Shown in pieces: positions 2,745-25,516 of a stretch of DNA of 31,068 nt. The translations under genes were made by a program, and so were the position numbers. Numbering within the stretch: the stretch's first letter is position 1; each line of letters opens with the position of its first letter. Below the pieces are notes generated by a model, which was not told the DNA's origin, ran no database searches, and worked only from the letters and a program-made list of their open reading frames with translations. This DNA comes from a virus (lineage: Duplodnaviria > Caudoviricetes), in IMG/VR virus record IMGVR_UViG_3300021957_000181, positions 1 through 31,068 of that record. One strand, given 5' to 3'.

Positions 2745-3806
2745 CTATCTATATTTGAAATCACACATAAGACGAGTTGGATAGCCATCCTTACCCTGTG
2801 TATCTCTTAAATTAAGTTTAAACATATATGTTTGTGATTGCATTTCAATATCAATACGTTTGCCTTTGCCGCCCTTGCCGCCATAATATATTACGGGAGA
2901 AGATACTTTAGCAGCCTTTGCCATGGCTGCACTATCCATTTTTTTAGATAATATTTTTCCACTTAGTTTATGTATAATATGATAATTGAAACCAATACCA
3001 GACTGCAATAGAGTAGACATAGCAGCTTGGTTAAATTTTGGATTACGATCAATCGAACCTTGGGCTGTGCCATTAAATATGTCACAAAACTTTTGTTGAT
3101 TTATACCAAACAATTTTAAAAGTTTAAGACCATTAACATTTGTAATTTTACTATTCTCAATTTCTTTCTTTGTAAGAATTGTTTTTACGCCAACATTAAA
3201 GAAAGTAGTAGTTCCGCCAAGTTTGAGAGAAAGATATATTGGACCTTTGTCAGTTGTTACTGTAATGTCTGTTACAGCAGCGCCAACATCGTATCCTCTC
3301 CCTTTTGGATTTTTTAATTGAATAGTTGGAGAAAACACCAATGGCCTACGAGTATTTTCCCCGCCTAAAATATCTACTTTAAATTTTTTGGACGACTCAA
3401 TATCATAAGTTTTATTTAAGTCCTCAATTGCTGCTAGCATTTTATTGTCGGATACGGTTTCACCGGCCCACCATTTTAACATTGCATCTGCAAACTGCGG
3501 CTCAAATAAGTTACCACGGTTATTTGCGCCTCGGTTACCAGATGAACCATTTCCAAATTTAACTTTAACTTTTGATAATCCAGCTTTTTGCTTTATTTGG
3601 GCTATGGTCCAATCACCATCTAATGCTCTTGAAATATTTACATTTGTTTTTTTCGCTAAATCAATATTGATAGGTGTTTCAATTTCTTTTGAACGCAAAA
3701 TAGAAAATAGGCTAACAATCTCTTTAACACCTTCAAGTGAAAAGTTATTTGCTTTTAGCTCTCTGTCTAGCTCATCTAAAGATTTTGGAAAAAATGTATA
3801 GGCCAT
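2745..3806 (-). CDS. Putative PD-(D/E)xK-fold nuclease-like protein
   Basis: 353 aa; GNLFE helix followed by TDITV...IYLSLK, resembling an E...D...(S)xK catalytic core; directly downstream of a late promoter. Confidence 0.5.
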   Translation of the reverse strand: MAYTFFPKSLDELDRELKANNFSLEGVKEIVSLFSILRSKEIETPINIDLAKKTNVNISRALDGDWTIAQIKQKAGLSKVKVKFGNGSSGNRGANNRGNLFEPQFADAMLKWWAGETVSDNKMLAAIEDLNKTYDIESSKKFKVDILGGENTRRPLVFSPTIQLKNPKGRGYDVGAAVTDITVTTDKGPIYLSLKLGGTTTFFNVGVKTILTKKEIENSKITNVNGLKLLKLFGINQQKFCDIFNGTAQGSIDRNPKFNQAAMSTLLQSGIGFNYHIIHKLSGKILSKKMDSAAMAKAAKVSSPVIYYGGKGGKGKRIDIEMQSQTYMFKLNLRDTQGKDGYPTRLMCDFKYR

Positions 3807-3860: not shown

Positions 3861-4041
3861 ATGTTCGTTCTATAAAAATTTTATCTCCTTGTCGAATATA
3901 TTCGTATTGATATTTTTCAAATCCAGAGTCAATAAGATCTTGATTAAGATTATCAATCATCTTTTTTACATTAGTAACATCTTCAGGTGATTCGATAATC
4001 CCAACCAAGCTGGGATTATCTTTATCTTCAATTGGTCTCAT
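3859..4041 (-). CDS. Hypothetical protein
   Basis: 60 aa; ATGA overlap with the upstream gene. Confidence 0.65.
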   Translation of the reverse strand: MRPIEDKDNPSLVGIIESPEDVTNVKKMIDNLNQDLIDSGFEKYQYEYIRQGDKIFIERT

Positions 4042-4991
4042 GATGCTGTCGCAAATTCTACAGCTTTATTGGCTGCTTTAAGTTTACGAGACTGATTGAC
4101 GCCAAACCATGCTGACTCCATCCGGGCATCATCTGAACGACCAAGCTTGTGGTCTGTAAGATAAGTCACAGAGTTAAAAGCCTGCCACCAAGTACCAGCA
4201 CCAAACTCAGCACCAGGCTGGGTTTCAAGCAATTCAAATGCTTGTTGTGCTGTACGGGAAAGATCTTTAACTTCAGAAACTGGACGCTTTTCACGGTGAC
4301 TAAATACTTCATTATAGTATTGAAGCAATGCCTCAGTTGAAAACTTACGAGTTGAAAGAAACTCAGCCATCTCTTTATACTGAGCAAACTTTTCAGAAGC
4401 AAGGCCCATTTGCTCTTTAACCATATCAGCATCGAATGTAGAGCGATGGCCAACTTTTACAAAGTTATTAGACGCTGAGTTTAAAGAAAATGTGAGTGTA
4501 TTATTGCATACAACACGAATGGGAGTAAAGCGAATATCAACAGCTTTACCATATTGGTGAGGATTGCTAAACAAAAGATAGGAGTCAACTTGGTCTTCTC
4601 CAAGAATTGAGAATGACTCTTTGATTTTTGCGAGAGCGAATACATTTTTTCCATCCTTTAAAGATCCTGCACAATTCATTTCCATATCACCAGCAAGTAC
4701 GAATTCAGAAAAGAATTCAAATGCTTGATCATTTTGGACTGGATTCCAGTCGTCTCCGACCATGTCTAGGATTTTGCCATCGTCACGAACCAAGGCTTTT
4801 TTGCCCGGAACTTTAACGCCTGATGCGGTAAATACATCTTCTTTTTCTACTGTCCAATCAAGTCCAGCCTTTTGCATGATCTGGCGAGGAGTAAGATCAT
4901 TAGAGACCTGCGCTCCGAGACCATGCCAAGGTGTTTCACCTGCATAAGCCATTTGTGCTACACCGTTTACGAATTCAATTTCATGTGCCAT
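4038..4991 (-). CDS. DUF932/TIGR03299 phage-plasmid family protein
   Basis: MAHEIE...PWHGLG...AGLDW, PVQN, TPIRVVCNNTL and WQAFNSVTYLTDH motifs. Confidence 0.85.
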   Translation of the reverse strand: MAHEIEFVNGVAQMAYAGETPWHGLGAQVSNDLTPRQIMQKAGLDWTVEKEDVFTASGVKVPGKKALVRDDGKILDMVGDDWNPVQNDQAFEFFSEFVLAGDMEMNCAGSLKDGKNVFALAKIKESFSILGEDQVDSYLLFSNPHQYGKAVDIRFTPIRVVCNNTLTFSLNSASNNFVKVGHRSTFDADMVKEQMGLASEKFAQYKEMAEFLSTRKFSTEALLQYYNEVFSHREKRPVSEVKDLSRTAQQAFELLETQPGAEFGAGTWWQAFNSVTYLTDHKLGRSDDARMESAWFGVNQSRKLKAANKAVEFATAS

Positions 4992-5015: not shown

Positions 5016-5088
5016 ATTTGATACGTTTATTCTAACATATTACAATTAGTTTGTAAATAAAAAAGTGAGCCGAAACTCACTTTTTTTT
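5016..5088 (-). promoter_or_regulatory. Terminator + early sigma70-type promoter cassette, copy 1
   Basis: Hairpin GTGAGT-TTCG-GCTCAC-T6; -35 TTTACA (5052-5057), 17 bp spacer, -10 TAGAAT (5029-5034); leader ATCAAATG. Confidence 0.85.
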
Positions 5089-5094
5089 ATTTTT

Positions 5095-5307
5095 TTAGTT
5101 AAGGTGAGAAGGATTATTTTTATATGTTTTGATAAGTTGTTTAAGAGTGATAAGGTGAAATTCTGAAGTTGTTTGGTTATGTTGAGGAAAGATAAGGAAT
5201 TGGTTGGAAGAGGGTAAATTGAGAGATTTAATATGTGAGATGAGTTGAGGAATAGTGTTGAAGGTTGAAAGTGAAGTTTGGTTTTGATTAAGAATTTGGT
5301 ATGTCAT
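5095..5307 (-). CDS. 70-aa hypothetical protein on a nearly G-free coding strand
   Basis: ATG at 5307 preceded by a GGAGA Shine-Dalgarno and the copy 2 promoter (the ORF-track start at 5352 lies inside that promoter). One G (5163) after the start codon. Confidence 0.7.
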   Translation of the reverse strand: MTYQILNQNQTSLSTFNTIPQLISHIKSLNLPSSNQFLIFPQHNQTTSEFHLITLKQLIKTYKNNPSHLN

Positions 5308-5317
5308 ATTTATCTCC

Positions 5318-5391
5318 ATTTGATATAACCATACTACACTATTACAAATCAATTGTAAACAAAAAAGTGAGCAGTTAGCTCACTTTTTTTT
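5318..5391 (-). promoter_or_regulatory. Terminator + early promoter cassette, copy 2
   Basis: Hairpin AAAAGTGAGC-TAACT-GCTCACTTTTTT; -35 TTTACA (5354-5359), 17 bp, -10 TAGTAT (5331-5336). Confidence 0.85.
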
Positions 5392-5631: not shown

Positions 5632-5657
5632 TGTTACCGGTAACGTTACCGGTAACA
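5632..5657. repeat. 26-bp perfect palindrome made of two tandem GTTACCGGTAAC units (LacI-family operator-like)
   Basis: TGTTACCGGTAACGTTACCGGTAACA in an intergenic region. Confidence 0.85.
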
Positions 5658-9171: not shown

Positions 9172-9685
9172 CTATAGGTCCCATCAAATTAAGTTCTTCT
9201 TCAGTTTCTTCAACGTGGCTTTCCCAACCAAGTTTAGCAGCTTCACCAATTAAACCATTATAAGGGCAAGGAGTTCCAGCATTCATCATTGCGTCAAAGA
9301 CTTTTGGATCTTGACACATTGTAGATACCGCGGCTACTTTCATTCCCATATCATAAAGAACCTTTGCATTCTTTAATCGTTTACAGTTTTCTTCAGTATA
9401 TGTACCACCAGCAGAAATACCTAGGATTTGTGTTTGTACTGCTCCAGCCACGCCAATAGTACATAGGTCAGAGTTACTACCTGTGCTAAATTGTGGGGAA
9501 ATTGCAGATGGTGGTGGTTGCTCAATTGTCGTGGTCATCTGACCACTAGTAGTAATATTAGAGTCTGTACCCGATAATGTACAGACATATCCATCAGGGC
9601 ATTCAACTGCATCTTGAGCAAAACTTGTTTGTGCAAAAAATACACAAATTATTAATACTAAAATTCCAAATAACTTATCTATCAT
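9110..9685 (-). CDS. Exported Cys-rich protein with C-terminal hydrophobic anchor
   Basis: Start reassigned to MIDK (9685), after GGAG and a late promoter; signal peptide ending SFA; six Cys; hydrophobic tail GMLAWLLLL. Confidence 0.75.
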   Translation of the reverse strand: MIDKLFGILVLIICVFFAQTSFAQDAVECPDGYVCTLSGTDSNITTSGQMTTTIEQPPPSAISPQFSTGSNSDLCTIGVAGAVQTQILGISAGGTYTEENCKRLKNAKVLYDMGMKVAAVSTMCQDPKVFDAMMNAGTPCPYNGLIGEAAKLGWESHVEETEEELNLMGPIDAEKAAPVIGAGMLAWLLLL

Positions 9686-9705
9686 ATTATACTCCATTTC
9701 AGCTC

Positions 9706-9713
9706 TATTTATA
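9706..9713 (-). promoter_or_regulatory. T4-type late promoter TATAAATA
   Basis: Exact consensus about 21 nt upstream of the ATG at 9685. Confidence 0.75.
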
Positions 9714-9725
9714 ACAATTAAAATT

Positions 9726-9902
9726 TTATACTGCTTCAACACAAATAGCTTGCTGGCCAGGATCAAAGTACCCATAACGGTTAGTTAATTCTTTGCCTAG
9801 AGCTTCTCTGGCTTGAAAGCATTTTACCATAGTACTATGCTTACTATGTTCTTCTACATAAGGCTTAGCATCGTACATATAGACAAATAACAAAACCCAC
9901 AT
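9726..9902 (-). CDS. Small hypothetical protein (58 aa; not in ORF track)
   Basis: MWVLLFVYMYDAKPYVEE...CF...AICVEAV; TAATG coupling to the upstream stop. Confidence 0.6.
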   Translation of the reverse strand: MWVLLFVYMYDAKPYVEEHSKHSTMVKCFQAREALGKELTNRYGYFDPGQQAICVEAV

Positions 9903-13476: not shown

Positions 13477-13554
13477 TTTGATATATCTATACTACACTAT
13501 TACAAATCAATTGTAAACAAAAAAGTGAGCAGATGGAGAAAAAAGTGAGCAGAT
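13477..13554 (-). promoter_or_regulatory. Early promoter cassette, copy 4 (arm present as direct repeat, no hairpin)
   Basis: -35 TTTACA (13512-13517), 17 bp, -10 TAGTAT (13489-13494); AAAAAAGTGAGCAGAT occurs twice (13519-13534, 13539-13554). Confidence 0.85.
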
Positions 13555-14744
13555 TATAAAAATAATTCTAGTGTATGCGCAGCTCGTTTAACACTATATG
13601 TTTGAGTCTTATTGTCTTGAAGAATGTAATCAGCTTCAACGGTTTCAATATTACCACCAAGAAAAGCTTTTACGTTCTCAGCCATATTCATTGCTGTGGT
13701 GACTGGAACATTTTGGCAAATCATGTTAAGATTTTTTATTCCGCCTTGAAGCTTAAAGTCCTTAGGCATTTTCATAATATCAAGAGCTTCTCGAGTATTA
13801 ATGAATCGATCAATGTCAGGATGAACAAGACTTGTTGGCATATGGCCTACAAATGCGCCAATATAATCTTTGCCGATTTCAACACCTTTACGCATAATGT
13901 TACCGCCAGATGCTAATTTTTCGTGCATCCGTTTTGCTTTTGGAACTAAACGGTCATACCCATTTTTCTCAGCCCATTTAGCAACAGTATTGTATTTAAT
14001 ACCAGCATGCTCAATAGCATCATATGGATTCATTGTTTTCTTTATCTTCTTTACGTAATCAGTATGGCTAATTCCACCTTCAACTTCTTCCAATACAAAC
14101 CTGTACAATGGATCGTCTGTTGGTTTAATTTTATTATTAGCCTGCTCAAACATAACATCAAGTTCATTGGTTGCTGATGATCTGATTTGATCTTCAATAG
14201 GAAGATGCGGTTTATTATAGTATTGAAATATTGGAACGTGATTACCTTTCCAAAAGAAATAGAAAGTACGATCTCGTATTTGACTTAGTCCGTGTAAGAT
14301 TGATTTTGTTTTATAGATTGAGAATGTGTATCCGTATTTCTTTGCGAGGCTTCGTAGTTTTGCAACAACTGGCTCTCCCATTTTACTAGCAAGGCGTGGA
14401 GCGTTTTCACCCCAGAACACAGTTGGTTGGACGGATTCAAGCACATATTCTGCAGACTTGACCATCCAATCATTAGTATTACTATCACCACTACTAGAAG
14501 GACTAAGTGAGCTAAGCCCTGCGCAAGGGCAGACAGTGTTGACCACATCAACGCTCCCAGGTGCACGAGCACCCTCATCAAGAAGAAGATAAGGCACGCT
14601 GTAATTATAATAGTGAATAAGCTGGCTGTCATTTGCTTTAAAATCCGAATAAGAAAGAATGTACTCAGGTCTTTTTCCAAAGACCTTTTCCATTGCAATC
14701 GTTTCACCGCCAATCAATGGCACAATACTGGCGTATGTTGTCAT
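13554..14744 (-). CDS. DNA (cytosine-5)-methyltransferase-like protein
   Basis: Catalytic CPCAGLS, ENAP, QIRDRTF and late CQNVP motifs; motif I atypical (VPLIGG). Confidence 0.8.
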   Translation of the reverse strand: MTTYASIVPLIGGETIAMEKVFGKRPEYILSYSDFKANDSQLIHYYNYSVPYLLLDEGARAPGSVDVVNTVCPCAGLSSLSPSSSGDSNTNDWMVKSAEYVLESVQPTVFWGENAPRLASKMGEPVVAKLRSLAKKYGYTFSIYKTKSILHGLSQIRDRTFYFFWKGNHVPIFQYYNKPHLPIEDQIRSSATNELDVMFEQANNKIKPTDDPLYRFVLEEVEGGISHTDYVKKIKKTMNPYDAIEHAGIKYNTVAKWAEKNGYDRLVPKAKRMHEKLASGGNIMRKGVEIGKDYIGAFVGHMPTSLVHPDIDRFINTREALDIMKMPKDFKLQGGIKNLNMICQNVPVTTAMNMAENVKAFLGGNIETVEADYILQDNKTQTYSVKRAAHTLELFL

Positions 14745-14746
14745 GT

Positions 14747-15088
14747 TTAAGTTTTCAAATCTTGATTTCTAACGTGTGCCATAATTGGCCATGTGGGGGC
14801 ATCAGGTCTAACATCCATATTGTCATCCCAAGGGAAAGAAATAATACAGGTGGTGTCTTTTTGCATAGCCTCAACTTTGTTTGCCCGGTGTTCCATATCT
14901 TCTTTCATTGCGACTGAAGAAAGAGATTGCCATGATAAGATATAAACTGCCATTGGATCATCATCAGTAAGTCTATATGGATTTGCATCCCATACTGTAA
15001 CTTTTACTTTTGAGCGATCAACATTTGCGTATTGATCGCATAAATCTAAAAAGTTACTAACATATAAATTTAATTCTTCGCTATACAT
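14747..15088 (-). CDS. Hypothetical protein in the DNA modification operon
   Basis: Probable start MYSEEL overlapping the epimerase stop. Confidence 0.6.
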   Translation of the reverse strand: MYSEELNLYVSNFLDLCDQYANVDRSKVKVTVWDANPYRLTDDDPMAVYILSWQSLSSVAMKEDMEHRANKVEAMQKDTTCIISFPWDDNMDVRPDAPTWPIMAHVRNQDLKT

Positions 15089-16040
15089 TATAATATTCCT
15101 TGTACCATTCTGCAAATTTTGCTACGCCTTCTGGAATTGAAGTTGTAGGTTTCCAACCCAATGATTGTAGTTTTGTAGTATCAGACCACGTTTCTTGAGT
15201 ATCAGCCGGGTGTTTTGGAAGCATTTGCTTATCAGCCTCTTTATCAAAGTTCTTTTCAATTTCAGTAATAAAATCCATTAATTGAACTTGTTCTCCACGA
15301 CCAATATTATATATTTCAGTTATAACTTCCCTACTGTCCCATGAATTTTTAGTTACAGTTTTAATTCCTTCAACAATGTCATCAACATATGTAAAATCGC
15401 GTTTCATATCTCCATAATTAAATACTTCAATTGGAGTTCCTCTTACAATACCTTCAGCAAATTTAAACAATGCCATATCAGGCCGGCCCCAAGGTCCATA
15501 TACCGTAAAGAAACGAAGACCTGTTGTTTTTGGAATCCCCGATGTCATAAACTGACATTCATTTGTATTTTTAGTATATCCATATGGATTTAGTTGATGG
15601 TTCCTAGGTTCGTCTTCTTTCCAAGGCAATGGATTACCAGCCATAGTGCAAGAAGTAGATGCATAAATTACATCTTCGATTTTAGCTCTTTTGCAAAGTT
15701 CAATAAGATTTTGTGTGCCGATGATATTATTGTCAATATATTCTCTTGGATGTTCTAGAGAATGTCTAACTCCAGCATGAGCGGCTAAATGAATAACTGT
15801 ATCTGGTGTATGTTCTTTAAATAAGTCATCCATTTGGCCATAGTTTTTAAGATCAATAGCCCTAACAATTACGCCTGGAGTTTGATCTAACAACTCTTTA
15901 CGGCGATATTTTAATTCTGAATCGTAATAGAAATCATTAAAGTTATCAAAGCCAAGTACACTATGGCCATCCTCAGCCAAAGACTTTGATAAATGATAAC
16001 CGATAAATCCGGCTGCGCCGGTAACTACTATTTTAGCCAT
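15081..16040 (-). CDS. NAD-dependent epimerase, UDP-glucuronate 4-epimerase (CapI/WcaG/LpsL)-like
   Basis: TGAAGFIG, HLAAHAGVRHSL, YGYTK, LRFFTVYGPWGRPDMA and RDFTYVDD motifs. Confidence 0.88.
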   Translation of the reverse strand: MAKIVVTGAAGFIGYHLSKSLAEDGHSVLGFDNFNDFYYDSELKYRRKELLDQTPGVIVRAIDLKNYGQMDDLFKEHTPDTVIHLAAHAGVRHSLEHPREYIDNNIIGTQNLIELCKRAKIEDVIYASTSCTMAGNPLPWKEDEPRNHQLNPYGYTKNTNECQFMTSGIPKTTGLRFFTVYGPWGRPDMALFKFAEGIVRGTPIEVFNYGDMKRDFTYVDDIVEGIKTVTKNSWDSREVITEIYNIGRGEQVQLMDFITEIEKNFDKEADKQMLPKHPADTQETWSDTTKLQSLGWKPTTSIPEGVAKFAEWYKEYYNV

Positions 16041-17157
16041 GAAGAACCTCTGAAATTTCTTGTTGTGTTACGCTTGTATTTAATGGGTGATTTCCAAGCA
16101 AGCATGAATATTGATCCATTGCTTTTTGCCATAGCTGGTCATCATCCATTGCTTCTAAATCTGAAGGTGTAAAGTTACAGAATTCTTCTCCATAAATTTT
16201 ACCTTCTTCTGGATCGCAGTAAGTAATACATTTTGCTTCTGCGCACTGCAATACTCGTGTGCGCCACCAACCTGATCCGACATTATCATATGCGGGCATT
16301 AAATTACCCCACACTTTTTGATATTCTTTTACCATTTTATCTTCTGTTAAACGCTCAGATTTATAAGCGCCTCGCTGAGCGCCATAAATTCTAACATCCC
16401 ATTCCATACTCGTTTTATCTAGCCATTTACGAGTTTTAGTTTGAACAAGGGAACTAAAGATCCAAGCTTTTTCTTTTTCAGATGGATCTGGAATATCAGA
16501 CTTTGTATCGTCAAAGAAAGCTCTTAAGTCATTTTGATTTATGTCTTCAGACATTCCATAATTATTTAAAAATGATCGACTTAAATGATATGGATTAGGA
16601 TTAAAAGTATATAGTAAATTTTTATTCCAATCTAATCCAAACTTTTCTACATCCCCGCCTTTATATGTGCACAGCAAAACTTTATTATTTTTTTCTTTTA
16701 ACATATCAATTGCATCAAGATATGCTGAATTAAAAGACATTACTTTTTCTTTGTTTTTAATTGTAGCATATTGATCTAAAATATGTGTGCGATAAGCTGA
16801 TGATGGACGCTCTTTTAAAGTTTTACCGTATTGGATAATACCATTATATATGTCTTTTACTTGCCAGTCGTCAAAAGCAAGAATAGCATCAGGTCTTTGA
16901 GATAATGCCCAAAGACCATCAAACAATCGTTGGCAAAACCCTTGAGGATTATGTAGAAATACAATCACATGATCGTATTCAGAAATATCCGTTCCGGGTT
17001 CAGTGTAAGTTTGAGTAAGTTCAAAGTCCATATCTTCTAGACAGCGAACCAAACCAAAATGGCATAAAATAACGCCAACTCGTTTTCTTAAATAGCCATC
17101 ATAACGGGTTTGTTCATTATTAAACCCAGTCACTAAAACTTTTTTCTTAGTCATCAT
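16033..17157 (-). CDS. Putative DNA glycosyltransferase (GT-B-like)
   Basis: 374 aa, two alpha/beta domains, FDDW and GSGWWRTR motifs; lies between the hydroxymethylase/deaminase and the epimerase. Function inferred largely from context. Confidence 0.5.
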   Translation of the reverse strand: MMTKKKVLVTGFNNEQTRYDGYLRKRVGVILCHFGLVRCLEDMDFELTQTYTEPGTDISEYDHVIVFLHNPQGFCQRLFDGLWALSQRPDAILAFDDWQVKDIYNGIIQYGKTLKERPSSAYRTHILDQYATIKNKEKVMSFNSAYLDAIDMLKEKNNKVLLCTYKGGDVEKFGLDWNKNLLYTFNPNPYHLSRSFLNNYGMSEDINQNDLRAFFDDTKSDIPDPSEKEKAWIFSSLVQTKTRKWLDKTSMEWDVRIYGAQRGAYKSERLTEDKMVKEYQKVWGNLMPAYDNVGSGWWRTRVLQCAEAKCITYCDPEEGKIYGEEFCNFTPSDLEAMDDDQLWQKAMDQYSCLLGNHPLNTSVTQQEISEVLHG

Positions 17158-17617
17158 TTACCTCAATAAATTCAAATTCAATTCCAGCTTCGCGAAACAT
17201 CTTTTTAGTCCGTTCAAATGATTCCATCCAATGATCTGGATAGACACCTGCTGGCATTATAACACGTTTTATACCGACTTGTAAAATACCTTTTGCACAA
17301 TCCGAACAAACAGGTAATCCCCATACGTATAGTGATGCGTTATCTAATGATACGCCATTATATGTAGCATTGTAAATTACGTTCTGCTCAGCATGAACAA
17401 CATATTGGTATTTAGTAGCTTTATTTATGTACCTATTTTCGCCATCATAAATTCCACGAGGAAAACCATTGTAACCTTGAGCCAAAACTTGGCCTTTAGA
17501 TCCAATAGCTATTGCTCCAATTTTAGTGGATGGATCTTTAGACCATGTGCTAACTTCTCTAGCAAGTCTAAGATATCGTGAGTCCCATTTATTTGACAAG
17601 GTGAAAATGCCTTTCAT
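17147..17617 (-). CDS. cd: dCMP deaminase
   Basis: SKDPSTKIGA, GYNG, HAEQN and PVCSDC zinc motifs; start uncertain. Confidence 0.9.
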   Translation of the reverse strand: MKGIFTLSNKWDSRYLRLAREVSTWSKDPSTKIGAIAIGSKGQVLAQGYNGFPRGIYDGENRYINKATKYQYVVHAEQNVIYNATYNGVSLDNASLYVWGLPVCSDCAKGILQVGIKRVIMPAGVYPDHWMESFERTKKMFREAGIEFEFIEVNDD

Positions 17618-18266
17618 ACACGTGCAAATTTTGGACTTGCCAAATAATATGTCCAGGTTGGATTAAATGGCGTTTGCCACAATTATAATCAAAGCACAGG
17701 CTGTTGAGTACATGTCTTTGCCAAGCAAAATCGTTTTTATATCCATAGATAACGTCATTAGATCGCATTTGTACAACCGAATGTAATAGGCCATCACGAA
17801 TATAATATGTTACAGCATTGGTGCAAATAAAGTCATTCTTACCACTTTCACAAAAATCTATCCAAATAGATGGTCTGTTATATACTAAGGTGGCTCTGCG
17901 ACCATCTGGATTACTGAGAAGCTCATCTAAAACCATATCGTACTGATTATAATACTTATCAGAATAAATCAAATGACCATAGTTAGAATTAATCTCGCCG
18001 TGGGCATTAGCTGTATATATCCAAGCAGCAGGTGGTTCTTTATTGGTATGAATATCATTAATGTTAGTTGACTTTTTTTCGTACCATTGTATTTCAGCAT
18101 CTACATATTCTTGATTGACTGTGCCAAAAATGGCCGGTTTATCTGCAATAAAGCTGGCACCAATAAGCTCAATAGTTTTTTGGCCAGTTTTATCAACAGT
18201 AAATGCTTCGTCTTTAAGTTCATCAATAAAATATTGACGGACATCTTGTACATTATTCAGTTTCAT
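17589..18266 (-). CDS. dCMP hydroxymethylase (T4 gp42-like thymidylate synthase superfamily)
   Basis: INSNYG, DFICT, QMRSNDVIYGYKNDFAW (Asp at the dCMP-specificity position), LHVYERHF. Confidence 0.82.
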   Translation of the reverse strand: MKLNNVQDVRQYFIDELKDEAFTVDKTGQKTIELIGASFIADKPAIFGTVNQEYVDAEIQWYEKKSTNINDIHTNKEPPAAWIYTANAHGEINSNYGHLIYSDKYYNQYDMVLDELLSNPDGRRATLVYNRPSIWIDFCESGKNDFICTNAVTYYIRDGLLHSVVQMRSNDVIYGYKNDFAWQRHVLNSLCFDYNCGKRHLIQPGHIIWQVQNLHVYERHFHLVK

Positions 18267-18600
18267 TATTACGAATCTCACGATTTAGAAAGTCGCGGTC
18301 AGGGTTCTGGCCAGGAATTTTACGACGACAGAATGCTACGCCAAAGCTGGCATAGTTAATTAGATCTTTAAATGAGTCTTCCATAGACTCAAAGTTTGGT
18401 TGGTACTCAGGGTCATTTTCCATAGCTTCAAGTACTGACCAAAGGCGAAGAGTTTTAGCATTGATAATATCCATGATTGAAGCTACACCACGTGGATAGT
18501 AATCAGCTTGGACAATACGTGATTTATCATTTTGATAGTCACGTGATTTTTGCTGTTGCAACTCAGCACATTCTTGTAAAACTTTAAGTGATTCACGCAT
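18253..18600 (-). CDS. Nucleotide-modification-associated domain protein (Nmad1/DUF1599-like)
   Basis: KSRDY...K.LR...ESMEDSFKDLINYA helical pattern; adjacent to the hydroxymethylase. Confidence 0.65.
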   Translation of the reverse strand: MRESLKVLQECAELQQQKSRDYQNDKSRIVQADYYPRGVASIMDIINAKTLRLWSVLEAMENDPEYQPNFESMEDSFKDLINYASFGVAFCRRKIPGQNPDRDFLNREIRNNETE

Positions 18601-23683: not shown

Positions 23684-24726
23684 GCTTCCTCAACAATATC
23701 TTCCATGTCCACCAAGGATTGGTGTCCAATACTATATTGTTTATTTAGGAAAGTTTTAAAGTCTGTATTTGCAAAAATTGGCGTCCAAAATTCTTTTTCT
23801 AAAGTTTTGTCATGACGAACTTTAGCTCCAACTTCTCCAGTAGCTTGATCAACCGGAGCATACCAACCATTTGAAGGCTTAGTAGCATATCCACCAGCAA
23901 GAGCACAATCGAGCAAGCCGGAATATTTGCGAACACCGCCATCCCAAGACACTGTAATAGGAATCTTAGATTTTTCTTTAACGTAACGACTTTTCTCTAC
24001 ATTAATTACAAAATGATAGCCTTGAATCTCTGTGCCTTTCTTATCTTGCTGGCGACCCAGAATCCAGATGTTATCTGCACTATAGTAAATGCCAGTACCA
24101 CCACCAACAACTGCCTTGGGAAATAAACCAATCTCCATATACGTATGGTTGACAGCAATGAGAGGAATGTTTTTCATTGTAAGATATGGCGTACTCATGC
24201 GAAATAAACCTTTTAAGGCTTTTGCACGTGACATATCTGCAACTGATTTTTCATTGATAGCGTCATCTAATTCTTTCTTAGATGCTAGATTACCGATAGA
24301 ATCGATTACAATAATTACCTTATCATTTCTATCTATTGCTTCAAGCTGGCCAATTAAATCAAATTTAAGTTCTTCTACATTAGCAATAGGTGTATGCAAG
24401 ATACGAGATGTATCAATATCAAATTGTTCGAAGTATGATTGTGGCGAACCAAATTCAGAATCATAAAATAGCATCACAGCTTCTGGATATTTTTTAAGAT
24501 ATGCACCAGCCATTAGAAGAGCAAAGGATGTTTTAAAATGTTTTGATGGCCCAGCTAAAACTGTTAAGCCGGGAGCTAACCCTCCGTCTACTGAACCTGA
24601 AAGTGCTACGTTTATCATAGGCACATCAGTTGGTGTCATATCTACTTCTGTAAAAAACTTAGAGTCAGCGAGGACTTCAGAGGTTTTGATTTTACTGTTT
24701 TTCTTCAGTTTGTCCATAATTGACAT
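23680..24726 (-). CDS. uvsX: RecA-like recombinase UvsX
   Basis: AGPSKHFKT, YDSEFG, IDSIGNLASKKE and EKSRYVKEK. Confidence 0.96.
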   Translation of the reverse strand: MSIMDKLKKNSKIKTSEVLADSKFFTEVDMTPTDVPMINVALSGSVDGGLAPGLTVLAGPSKHFKTSFALLMAGAYLKKYPEAVMLFYDSEFGSPQSYFEQFDIDTSRILHTPIANVEELKFDLIGQLEAIDRNDKVIIVIDSIGNLASKKELDDAINEKSVADMSRAKALKGLFRMSTPYLTMKNIPLIAVNHTYMEIGLFPKAVVGGGTGIYYSADNIWILGRQQDKKGTEIQGYHFVINVEKSRYVKEKSKIPITVSWDGGVRKYSGLLDCALAGGYATKPSNGWYAPVDQATGEVGAKVRHDKTLEKEFWTPIFANTDFKTFLNKQYSIGHQSLVDMEDIVEEA

Positions 24727-25516
24727 TTTGTTCTTTCTCTCTTTCGTCTAATTCGTATTGAGATCTATAATTATTATTAATTCTAATACATTCTTCAATA
24801 ATTGTAAACCCGTTATCGTAATTAAATAGTGCTGAAGTGTCTTTTGGGAAACATGCTCCGCCATAACCTTGTTTACTATCAAATCCTGGAACCTTAGTAT
24901 GTGATTGACCAATCCGTGGATCAGATCCAATGGCACGAGAAATCTTATTAAAGTTTACACCTTCTTTTTGAGCTAAGTCATATAGCTGATTGAAGAATGT
25001 AACTTTCAGAGATAAGAAATTATTGATGCCATATTTAATTAAACTTGCTTCTTTGTGGCTTACTTTAAATACCGGACAAGGATTACACAAACTATAATTG
25101 TCATATAGTTTTTTTACATAACTAGTAGAAAAATCTGAACCGCCTAAGATATGGAAAGGAGGATTTACGAAATCTTCTTTTGCTGATTTCTCAGTTAAAA
25201 ATTCCGGATTGTAAACTAAAAACTCTGCATTACTATACAAATCAAAAAAGTCTGGAGTAATAGTTGATTTTATAATAATAATCATATTATCTGACAATTT
25301 GCTAAGAACATTTCTTACTATAGAATAATCTACAGTGCCGTCCTTGCCCATTGGTGTAGGTACACAAATAAAAGCTACACTATATTTTGTTTGGTCAATA
25401 TCATCTATTGTTGTTCCATATTTTGGATCAATAATAGTTTTTTCAATATCTGGATGTTGGAAACCATAATCGACAGCCTGACCTACAAAACCATGGCCAA
25501 TGATTAACATTTTCAT
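24692..25516 (-). CDS. ugd: UDP-glucose/GDP-mannose 6-dehydrogenase family (short form)
   Basis: GHGFVG, ICVPTP, IKSTI, NPEFL and GYGGACFPKD; lacks the usual C-terminal domain. Confidence 0.85.
   Translation of the reverse strand: MKMLIIGHGFVGQAVDYGFQHPDIEKTIIDPKYGTTIDDIDQTKYSVAFICVPTPMGKDGTVDYSIVRNVLSKLSDNMIIIIKSTITPDFFDLYSNAEFLVYNPEFLTEKSAKEDFVNPPFHILGGSDFSTSYVKKLYDNYSLCNPCPVFKVSHKEASLIKYGINNFLSLKVTFFNQLYDLAQKEGVNFNKISRAIGSDPRIGQSHTKVPGFDSKQGYGGACFPKDTSALFNYDNGFTIIEECIRINNNYRSQYELDEREKEQNVNYGQTEEKQ

Follow-up and report, generated by a model that had tools for sequence, protein, structure and literature searches.

A small gene of a marine phage with T4-like gene content is written almost without guanine, and selection on nucleotide content is indicated because G stays out of its relatives although their silent positions show saturation among the other three bases. 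The gene lies at positions 5095 to 5307 on the minus strand of the window, by which is meant the whole 31,068-nt stretch analysed (IMG/VR record IMGVR_UViG_3300021957_000181). Composition, family alignment, AlphaFold2 modelling and family searches describe its product as a small alpha/beta protein of 70 residues that belongs to no known family. An earlier note on this DNA had reported one C in the 224 nt from 5081 to 5304 of the plus strand, and this is exact: a recount gives T92, A67, G64 and C1, the sole C being at 5163. Elsewhere in the window, stretches with fewer than two Cs reach 50 nt at most, and at the window's C frequency the binomial probability of a run like that in the gene is 8.5e-21 at any one place and 2.7e-16 for the window as a whole. 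The ORF (5307 to 5095, minus strand; 213 nt) consists of A80, T67, C64 and G2, so that C makes up 30% of it. One G belongs to the ATG; the only G past the start codon is that of Glu49 (GAA, position 5163), where it is preceded by A. It is missing in the 97% identical sequence L093 and preceded by C in L101. The product otherwise uses F, L, I, S, P, T, Y, H, Q, N and K, the 11 residues that had been claimed.

A sequencing or assembly artefact is ruled out by four agreeing DNA runs and by homologues that keep the bias down to 56% identity. In the read check for such an artefact, contigs spanning the full ORF with zero differing letters were found in 4/4 DNA runs from four studies, one of which may be the source of the window; part of the region was present in 20 of the 24 listed runs. 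A 197-nt contig (5104 to 5300, depth 5) in one of three RNA runs gives a weak hint of transcription, with DNA carry-over as another possible origin; the gene is uncovered in the other two (X19 and X20), which are uninformative.

A sequence search recovered 6 proteins of 70 residues and a profile search 13 among 215 candidates, and the family was located at 11 viral and 27 metagenome loci, L092 being identical to the window. The family, which belongs to marine T4-like phages, is small, because a scan of 1.84 billion representatives gave only three matches, one of them a 1203-residue protein taken as spurious. The 22 distinct complete sequences have 70 or 71 codons, end in TAA without exception (22/22), never use Gly, Arg, Cys or Trp, and contain between zero (L093) and five Gs after the start codon. 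Of 231 pairs, 213 have dS >0.1, and their median dN/dS of about 0.25 indicates that the protein is under purifying selection and suggests that the ORF is translated. Between the window and all relatives except the nearest, dS is 0.98 to 2.17, and to judge from the alignment the silent positions have clearly been replaced while G was kept out. Wherever a codon could take an optional G, it did so in 8 of 884 cases, where neighbouring genes would predict 203. Variation is seen at 25 of the 30 four-fold columns, 10 columns have A, C and T all represented, and two ever contain G; none of the 22 Lys, Gln or Glu columns has a third-place G, and third-place Gs number 15 in 1526 codons. These codons and columns are not independent counts, since the family sequences share ancestry. 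The proposal that selection acts on nucleotide content is supported by this exclusion of G at saturated silent sites, and G avoidance persists among homologues despite their divergence.

The gene appears to be carried as a unit. A Shine-Dalgarno (SD) sequence, GGAGA, stands at 5313 to 5317, behind a predicted T4-type early promoter (TTTACA-17-TAGTAT, 5331 to 5359; pattern scan and comparison with T4), and a predicted terminator hairpin lies upstream of these at 5361 to 5389 (listed on the plus strand by the hairpin scan, with A and T runs on both flanks, and assigned here to the minus strand). A second predicted hairpin follows the gene at 5059 to 5086, and next to it a second predicted early promoter (5029 to 5057) serves a DUF932 gene of normal G content (4038 to 4991, family match), all on the minus strand. 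The promoter, the SD and the downstream hairpin that had been claimed for the gene were thus located as predicted elements. Terminator and promoter together form a module that occurs at six sites in the window, and two of its copies flank the G-purged gene. In the window alone the promoter scan is at chance level (10 found, 9.9 in shuffles); the same pattern in T4 gives 30 TTTAC and 0 TTGAC. Sites that carry no insert are found in relatives. L001, in which the next gene is 97% identical, has one module and no gene between, and the site filled in G013 is empty in G003, with flanks 95 to 96% identical, and in G012. Family members also occupy different sites in different phages. These comparisons indicate that the gene is accessory and travels as a promoter-terminator cassette, sites without it being cleanly empty. 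The arrangement resembles the PeSL cassettes of the T4-type phages RB49 and phi1, in which an early promoter and a terminator stem-loop surround small accessory genes (PMC2839356). In both, a sigma70-like promoter and a terminator stem-loop are repeated (here two flanking copies, six in the window), and a gene is gained or lost between two copies, as between L001, G003 and G012 on the one hand and the window and G013 on the other. Excised mini-circles are a further trait of PeSL cassettes; among the contigs compared here no joint of that sort appeared, which says nothing either way. PeSL accounts for the movement of genes, whereas a nucleotide-purged cargo is absent from the accessible part of its description (PMC2839356).

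Purging of G extends to two further families in slots of this kind, as judged from their composition. The second family encodes proteins of 58 to 60 residues (L056, 2100 to 2282; L120, 2998 to 3174; L122, 1946 to 2122; L124, 2998 to 3177) with a promoter of the same kind upstream; G content is 2 to 6% in the three members measured, L056 having 2.2% and its relatives 5 to 6%, and L056 occupies the same slot as L053. The third family carries a GPxGGN motif, and some of its members match phrog_5922 (L016, 565 to 780; L167, 2501 to 2713; L146-L225). Its G content ranges from 9 to 22% across 42 sequences, and the low-G members form one clade, some of them directly before the DUF932 gene. This is the window gene's own slot, and the DUF932 gene marks it as filled by a low-G GPxGG gene in L011, L016 and L018. 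No kinship among the G-purged families was shown by profile comparison (probabilities 0.6%, 2.7% and 13%); that the second family derives from GPxGG, the pair with 13%, is a hunch. Two other ORFs are G-poor in their first part only. A gene directly behind the family-1 gene (L082, 4290 to 4490; relatives L226-L238) has a first part free of G (60 bases in L082) and an acidic C-terminal half that retains it, and in L086 the spacer between the family-1 gene and the gene behind it is mostly G-free. A 56-residue ORF ahead of a low-G GPxGG gene (L161, 2276 to 2446) has at most three Gs over 125 bases.

Low G as a general trait of early or short genes was rejected, the median G of 55 short promoter-led ORFs being 0.202. 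The 101 promoter-led ORFs that remain when ORFs below 8.5% G and the GPxGG family are left out have a median of 0.216 and a minimum of 0.164, and their AG content is normal too. Among 771 distinct SD-led ORFs from 126 sources the mode lies at about 20 to 22% G and 23 ORFs fall below 4%, a proportion that is no estimate of frequency because the loci were chosen for carrying G-purged genes. G001 has one G-purged gene among 88 SD-led ORFs, and none was found among the 194 and 181 SD-led ORFs of G002 (77% complete) and G003 (86%). In other G-poor segments of G001, G002, G005, G011, G012 and G014 no G-purged gene led by an SD was seen, and these segments resemble intergenic DNA or AT-rich genes read on the reverse strand. 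In the window itself the longest stretch of the plus strand so poor in G runs from 9634 to 9732, with one G in 99 bases.

Local context-dependent mutation might remove G without selection on nucleotide content, and might by itself yield a rule for the context of surviving Gs with no attack biology at all. This explanation is highly improbable. The approximately 20 points of G lost relative to background were replaced mostly by C (10 points, with 5.5 to T and 4 to A), not by the G-to-A change of deamination, and the bias is limited to single genes in several unrelated families with normal neighbours on the same strand.

The Gs that do remain are placed in a particular way. The 70 leftover Gs of the family are preceded by C in 44 cases, T in 22, G in three and A in one, and A comes next in 53. 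With repeats removed, 15 of 21 first-place Gs in the family follow C, where the same codon boxes predict 6.3. The corresponding figures are 50/108 (24.4 expected) in the low-G GPxGG clade and 64/259 (66.8 expected) in its high-G relatives, and background genes slightly avoid C before a first-place G. At four-fold sites, A stands before G in 6 of 69 contexts (0.09), compared with 0.42 before other bases. The odds of C or G over A or T before G are 13 in the family, 5.2 in low-G GPxGG genes, 1.25 in their high-G sister and 0.84 in the background. The contexts were corrected for repeats only, not for independent gains of G, so that p-values are too small. In L167, 16 of 22 Gs follow C, four follow G, and A and T precede one each; between low-G and high-G GPxGG genes the ratios are 1.0 to 2.3 for CG-centred triplets and 0.12 to 0.37 for AG-centred ones. 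Among Gly codons whose next codon does not start with G, GGA accounts for 25/41 in the low-G clade versus 13/108. The coding strand retains about 104 CT and 110 CA per kb, AG and TG being purged. Taken together, the sequences indicate a rule shared by two independent lineages and opposite to the background: the base ahead of a leftover G is C or G, and hardly ever A. Exceptions exist: the window's lone G follows A, the second family shows the pattern weakly, and in the two part-purged genes (MKSFTF and L161) it is not significant.

Because the bias is strand-specific, its target should be either G in the mRNA or C in the template, and because the strand asymmetry is strict, only a transcription-linked cause fits. 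Sequence alone cannot separate template C from mRNA G. If the mRNA is the target, the message may survive a host toxin, an RNase or RNA modifier acting at G in the order AG > UG > GG, CG, and the protein may be an antidote made while other mRNAs are destroyed. We regard this as rather unlikely, yet as the nearest competitor of the reading favoured below; it would give the same G exclusion and strand asymmetry and requires no DNA modification common to the carriers. Anti-phage toxins with nucleotide-level mRNA targets do exist (CmdT, PMC11618068; RelE, PMC5224514), and a guanosine-free leader shields SARS-CoV-2 mRNA from NSP1 (PMC9371909). No enzyme with the AG > UG > GG, CG preference was found in the literature as far as its accessible text goes, and the SD retains GGAGA. 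The defence CmdTAC attacks mRNA at a dinucleotide that includes G, so that a G-free message would largely escape it; CmdT, as described, modifies GA (PMC11618068). Escape from CmdT, one of the reasons suggested in the earlier note, does not agree with the data: GA is the commonest leftover context (53/70), which means that the CmdT target is not avoided, and Gs outside GA are purged too. The suggestion of a G-dependent RNase fails likewise for Escherichia coli RelE, whose preferred cleavage site, according to the text available, has C on the 5' side of the cut and G on the 3' side (PMC5224514). Codons ending in G are avoided here, as escape from RelE would have it, but C before G, its preferred context, is kept (15/21 against 6.3), and escape from RelE was dropped for that reason.

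It is very doubtful that the gene is built for scarce GTP, as in starvation, the stringent response or a GTP-depleting defence, or serves as a GTP gauge, as had also been suggested. Avoidance of G extends to each of the three codon positions, in keeping with such a role, and a G just downstream promotes pausing (PMC4499132, in the part available). Against it, translation also consumes GTP. Moreover, in the consensus pause sequence G is preceded by a pyrimidine (PMC4499132), from which CG and UG would be predicted to be lost first, yet it is A before G that is lost and CG that is kept.

The RNA itself could act, either as an unstructured C-rich decoy for Rho or through highly efficient translation, with the protein secondary; this too has little chance of being right. 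The part of the Rho proposal that holds concerns the RNA. Rut sites are C-rich, G-poor and unstructured, and the native ORF, 30% C, folds to 0.0 kcal/mol, compared with -43.8 +/- 7.6 kcal/mol for 78 window tiles. The remainder does not hold, for the protein is conserved (dN/dS about 0.25) and predicted to fold, and a decoy leaves the C-before-G rule unexplained. Avoidance of structure also agrees poorly with the retention of CG, a strong pairing step, and with U, the partner of A, which is not depleted; moreover, folding of the bare transcript is predicted to sequester the SD.

The alternative target, C in the template, gains interest from the modification genes of the phage. The window encodes a T4 gp42-like dCMP hydroxymethylase (17589 to 18281, minus strand; E 5e-72 to PDB 1b49) that matches cellular-type thymidylate synthases at 9e-6 or weaker, against 5e-72 for T4 gp42, and this gene predicts hydroxymethylcytosine (hmC) in the phage DNA. 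A putative DNA glycosyltransferase (16033 to 17157, minus strand) is a lead only: its Atlas cluster scores 0.96 with Glyco_trans_1_2 on 12% of members, it has no PDB match, and its model (pLDDT 43) is unusable. A gene for an NAD-dependent sugar epimerase (15081 to 16040) adjoins it, and a UDP-glucose dehydrogenase family gene lies at 24692 to 25516, both assigned by family match on the minus strand. The carriers G005, G012 and G013 also encode a gp42-like hydroxymethylase. Across 30 mostly partial contigs the match occurs in 8 (7 strong, 1 weak), in carriers and non-carriers alike, and both contigs that are at least 90% complete include it. It also occurs, together with putative sugar genes, in G021 and G022, which carry high-G GPxGG genes. 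The notion that low-G carriers glycosylate and high-G carriers do not was therefore unsupported, there being putative sugar genes in both groups.

The two groups differ in their -35 boxes. A TTTAC or TGTAC box lies upstream of 22/22 family genes and 13/14 low-G GPxGG genes, whereas 17/18 high-G GPxGG genes have TTGAC, the box of the 18th being cut at the sequence edge; a strict pattern that includes the -10 box matched only 7 of 25 genes of families 1 and 2. The split is contig-wide. TTGAC is found in G021, G022 and G024-G026, with G023 mixed, and TTTAC or TGTAC in the window, G001-G003, G005 and G011-G014; the hydroxymethylase occurs in both groups where the region is present, and the putative sugar genes differ between them. 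G-purged genes were found only in contigs with the T4-type TTTAC/TGTAC boxes, a correlation between box and purging that covers two phage groups only.

The third position of TTGACA is one where sigma touches the C of the template, and the carriers' -35 boxes, as in T4, lack G there. Such boxes, and the hydroxymethylase and sugar genes, could mean that the phage's own bulky cytosine slows the host RNA polymerase and that template Cs were shed for the fastest expression after injection, with no host attack; a strong pair before G might then ease bypass. This is improbable, as the 101 other promoter-led ORFs are normal in G and AG, the hydroxymethylase is present in G002 and G003 (77% and 86% complete) without any G-purged gene, and T4 has none in the part scanned.

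Some further genes merit mention on their own account. The window contains a C5-methyltransferase-like gene (13554 to 14744), though the phage is predicted to replace C by hmC; this gene is present in G021 and G022 and was not found in G002, G003 and G005. Near the hydroxymethylase, G021 (49856 to 52947) and G022 (160620 to 163711) encode a 414-residue protein (no PHROG), a 505-residue protein and a phosphoheptose-isomerase-like gene, a set that likely represents a different DNA sugar pathway. In L243 and L244 (about 1501 to 1510; G013 and G003) one TGA falls at the start of the hydroxymethylase match. It probably lies upstream of the true start, and the open frame is 235 residues long.

We tentatively favour, at somewhat less than even chances, the reading that modified C is kept out of the template strand and that the gene, likely one of counter-defence, can thereby go on being transcribed while bases are excised by the host. 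The phage DNA would carry glycosylated hmC, and a host enzyme would excise or cut at these sugar-modified hydroxymethylcytosines. Lesions in the template strand would halt transcription, while those in the C-rich coding strand would not; a gene without template C would thereby be spared and still be copied by RNA polymerase. Modification or excision may be less frequent at template Cs with G or C next to them on the 3' side than at those before T or A, and the 70-residue protein would block or repair the attack. By the same token there may be in marine T4-like phages, a possibility of like standing, a class of unrelated small early genes in a three-letter alphabet that evade a host defence and alone are transcribed during excision of bases from the genome. 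The optional-G counts (8/884 codons against 203 expected), the strand asymmetry and the rule of C or G before G support this reading. A template free of the phage's bulky modified cytosine was among the four reasons offered in the earlier note and fits best of them; in the present reading host attack is invoked, and not bulk only. Host glycosylases that excise glucosyl-hmC or hmC are known, and the resulting abasic sites have been proposed to impede transcription (PMC11078745; 10.64898/2026.02.25.707755, in the text available). Brig1 and Brig3 thus supply the proposed kind of attack; they differ in being host genes from which, in the parts of these sources available, phages escape by loss of glucosyltransferase, with no mention of genes whose template lacks C. 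Tolerance of GG fits because T4 alpha-glucosyltransferase, as far as these sources go, modifies only one of two adjacent hmC (10.64898/2026.02.25.707755; PMC13216743). For CpG, the best-kept context, no statement of escape from glycosylation or excision was found in the literature, and the accessible parts of PMC5778469, 10.1101/2023.12.21.572611, 10.1101/2025.10.29.685425 and PMC7781912 contain no matching context rule. The carriers' putative sugar transferases differ, and therefore the context rule of one enzyme cannot simply explain all. Several findings count against a template target: T4, a known Brig1 target, lacks G-purged genes throughout the 134 kb scanned; the context rule is drawn from two lineages, and the window's own G is in AG; G021 and G022 are high in G despite their hydroxymethylase and sugar genes; and the protein is not acidic.

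The AlphaFold2 model of the 70-residue protein (pLDDT 83, pTM 0.69) shows a small alpha/beta fold. No family was assigned in Pfam (one FNIP match below the cut-off), PHROGs or PADLOC, and cultured phages gave no match; the best Atlas score is 0.83, and in Rfam nothing reaches the gathering score for the G-purged gene. Three fold searches returned no significant match and no Foldseek E of 0.001 or less. The top row, Erh1 of the ERH fold (Z 5.0, rmsd 3.8, 65 aligned), and a GYF row (Z 4.0, rmsd 3.4, 59 aligned) are both below Z 8, the level at which the tool considers a match meaningful. Known uracil-glycosylase inhibitors are acidic, and the family's mean pI of 8.8 is unlike that of an acidic DNA mimic. 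Kinship with counter-defence proteins was not found by sequence or fold in Pfam, PHROGs, cultured phages or solved folds. A counter-defence role is nonetheless likely, because the gene has an early promoter, a patchy presence and a costly coding. The T4 genes arn, ipI and dmd are comparable as small accessory genes of an hmC phage with TTTAC early promoters; they differ in having no sequence match to the 70-residue protein and in not being G-purged. In the 134 of 169 kb of T4 scanned, arn, ipI and dmd included, there is no G-purged gene, and the lowest G content of an annotated gene is 14.9%.

The earlier note knew of no described system that matches, and a search of the literature (mostly open-access papers, main texts) likewise found no description of G-purged phage genes. 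As far as could be found, purging of one base from a whole gene with a context rule is undescribed, whereas the way in which the gene moves has known precedents. Closest in concept is the guanosine-free SARS-CoV-2 leader that escapes NSP1 (PMC9371909), where missing G in the primary sequence likewise protects viral expression. According to the text available that leader is short and cap-proximal and escapes the virus's own shut-off; in the phage gene the whole coding sequence is involved, at the cost of Gly, Arg, Cys and Trp. A natural protein-coding gene held to three nucleotides by selection is unexpected under any mechanism, and it points to a strand- and context-specific pressure in the conflict between phage and host, for which the order AG > UG > CG is a fingerprint that may help to find the host enzyme. 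If a template kept free of modified C is the true cause, G content and the C-before-G rule would form a homology-free marker for new counter-defence genes that needs nothing but sequence, and from the rule one could predict which contexts a host enzyme yet to be discovered prefers. For the phage itself no host was found, its best match to a cultured DNA polymerase being 54%.

Two remaining features of the window were noted. A palindromic stretch at 5632 to 5657, between genes of 76 and 219 residues, was scored as a hairpin, and the 353-residue gene at 2745 to 3806 (phrog_8438) is replaced in the close relative L001 by an unrelated gene of 258 residues.
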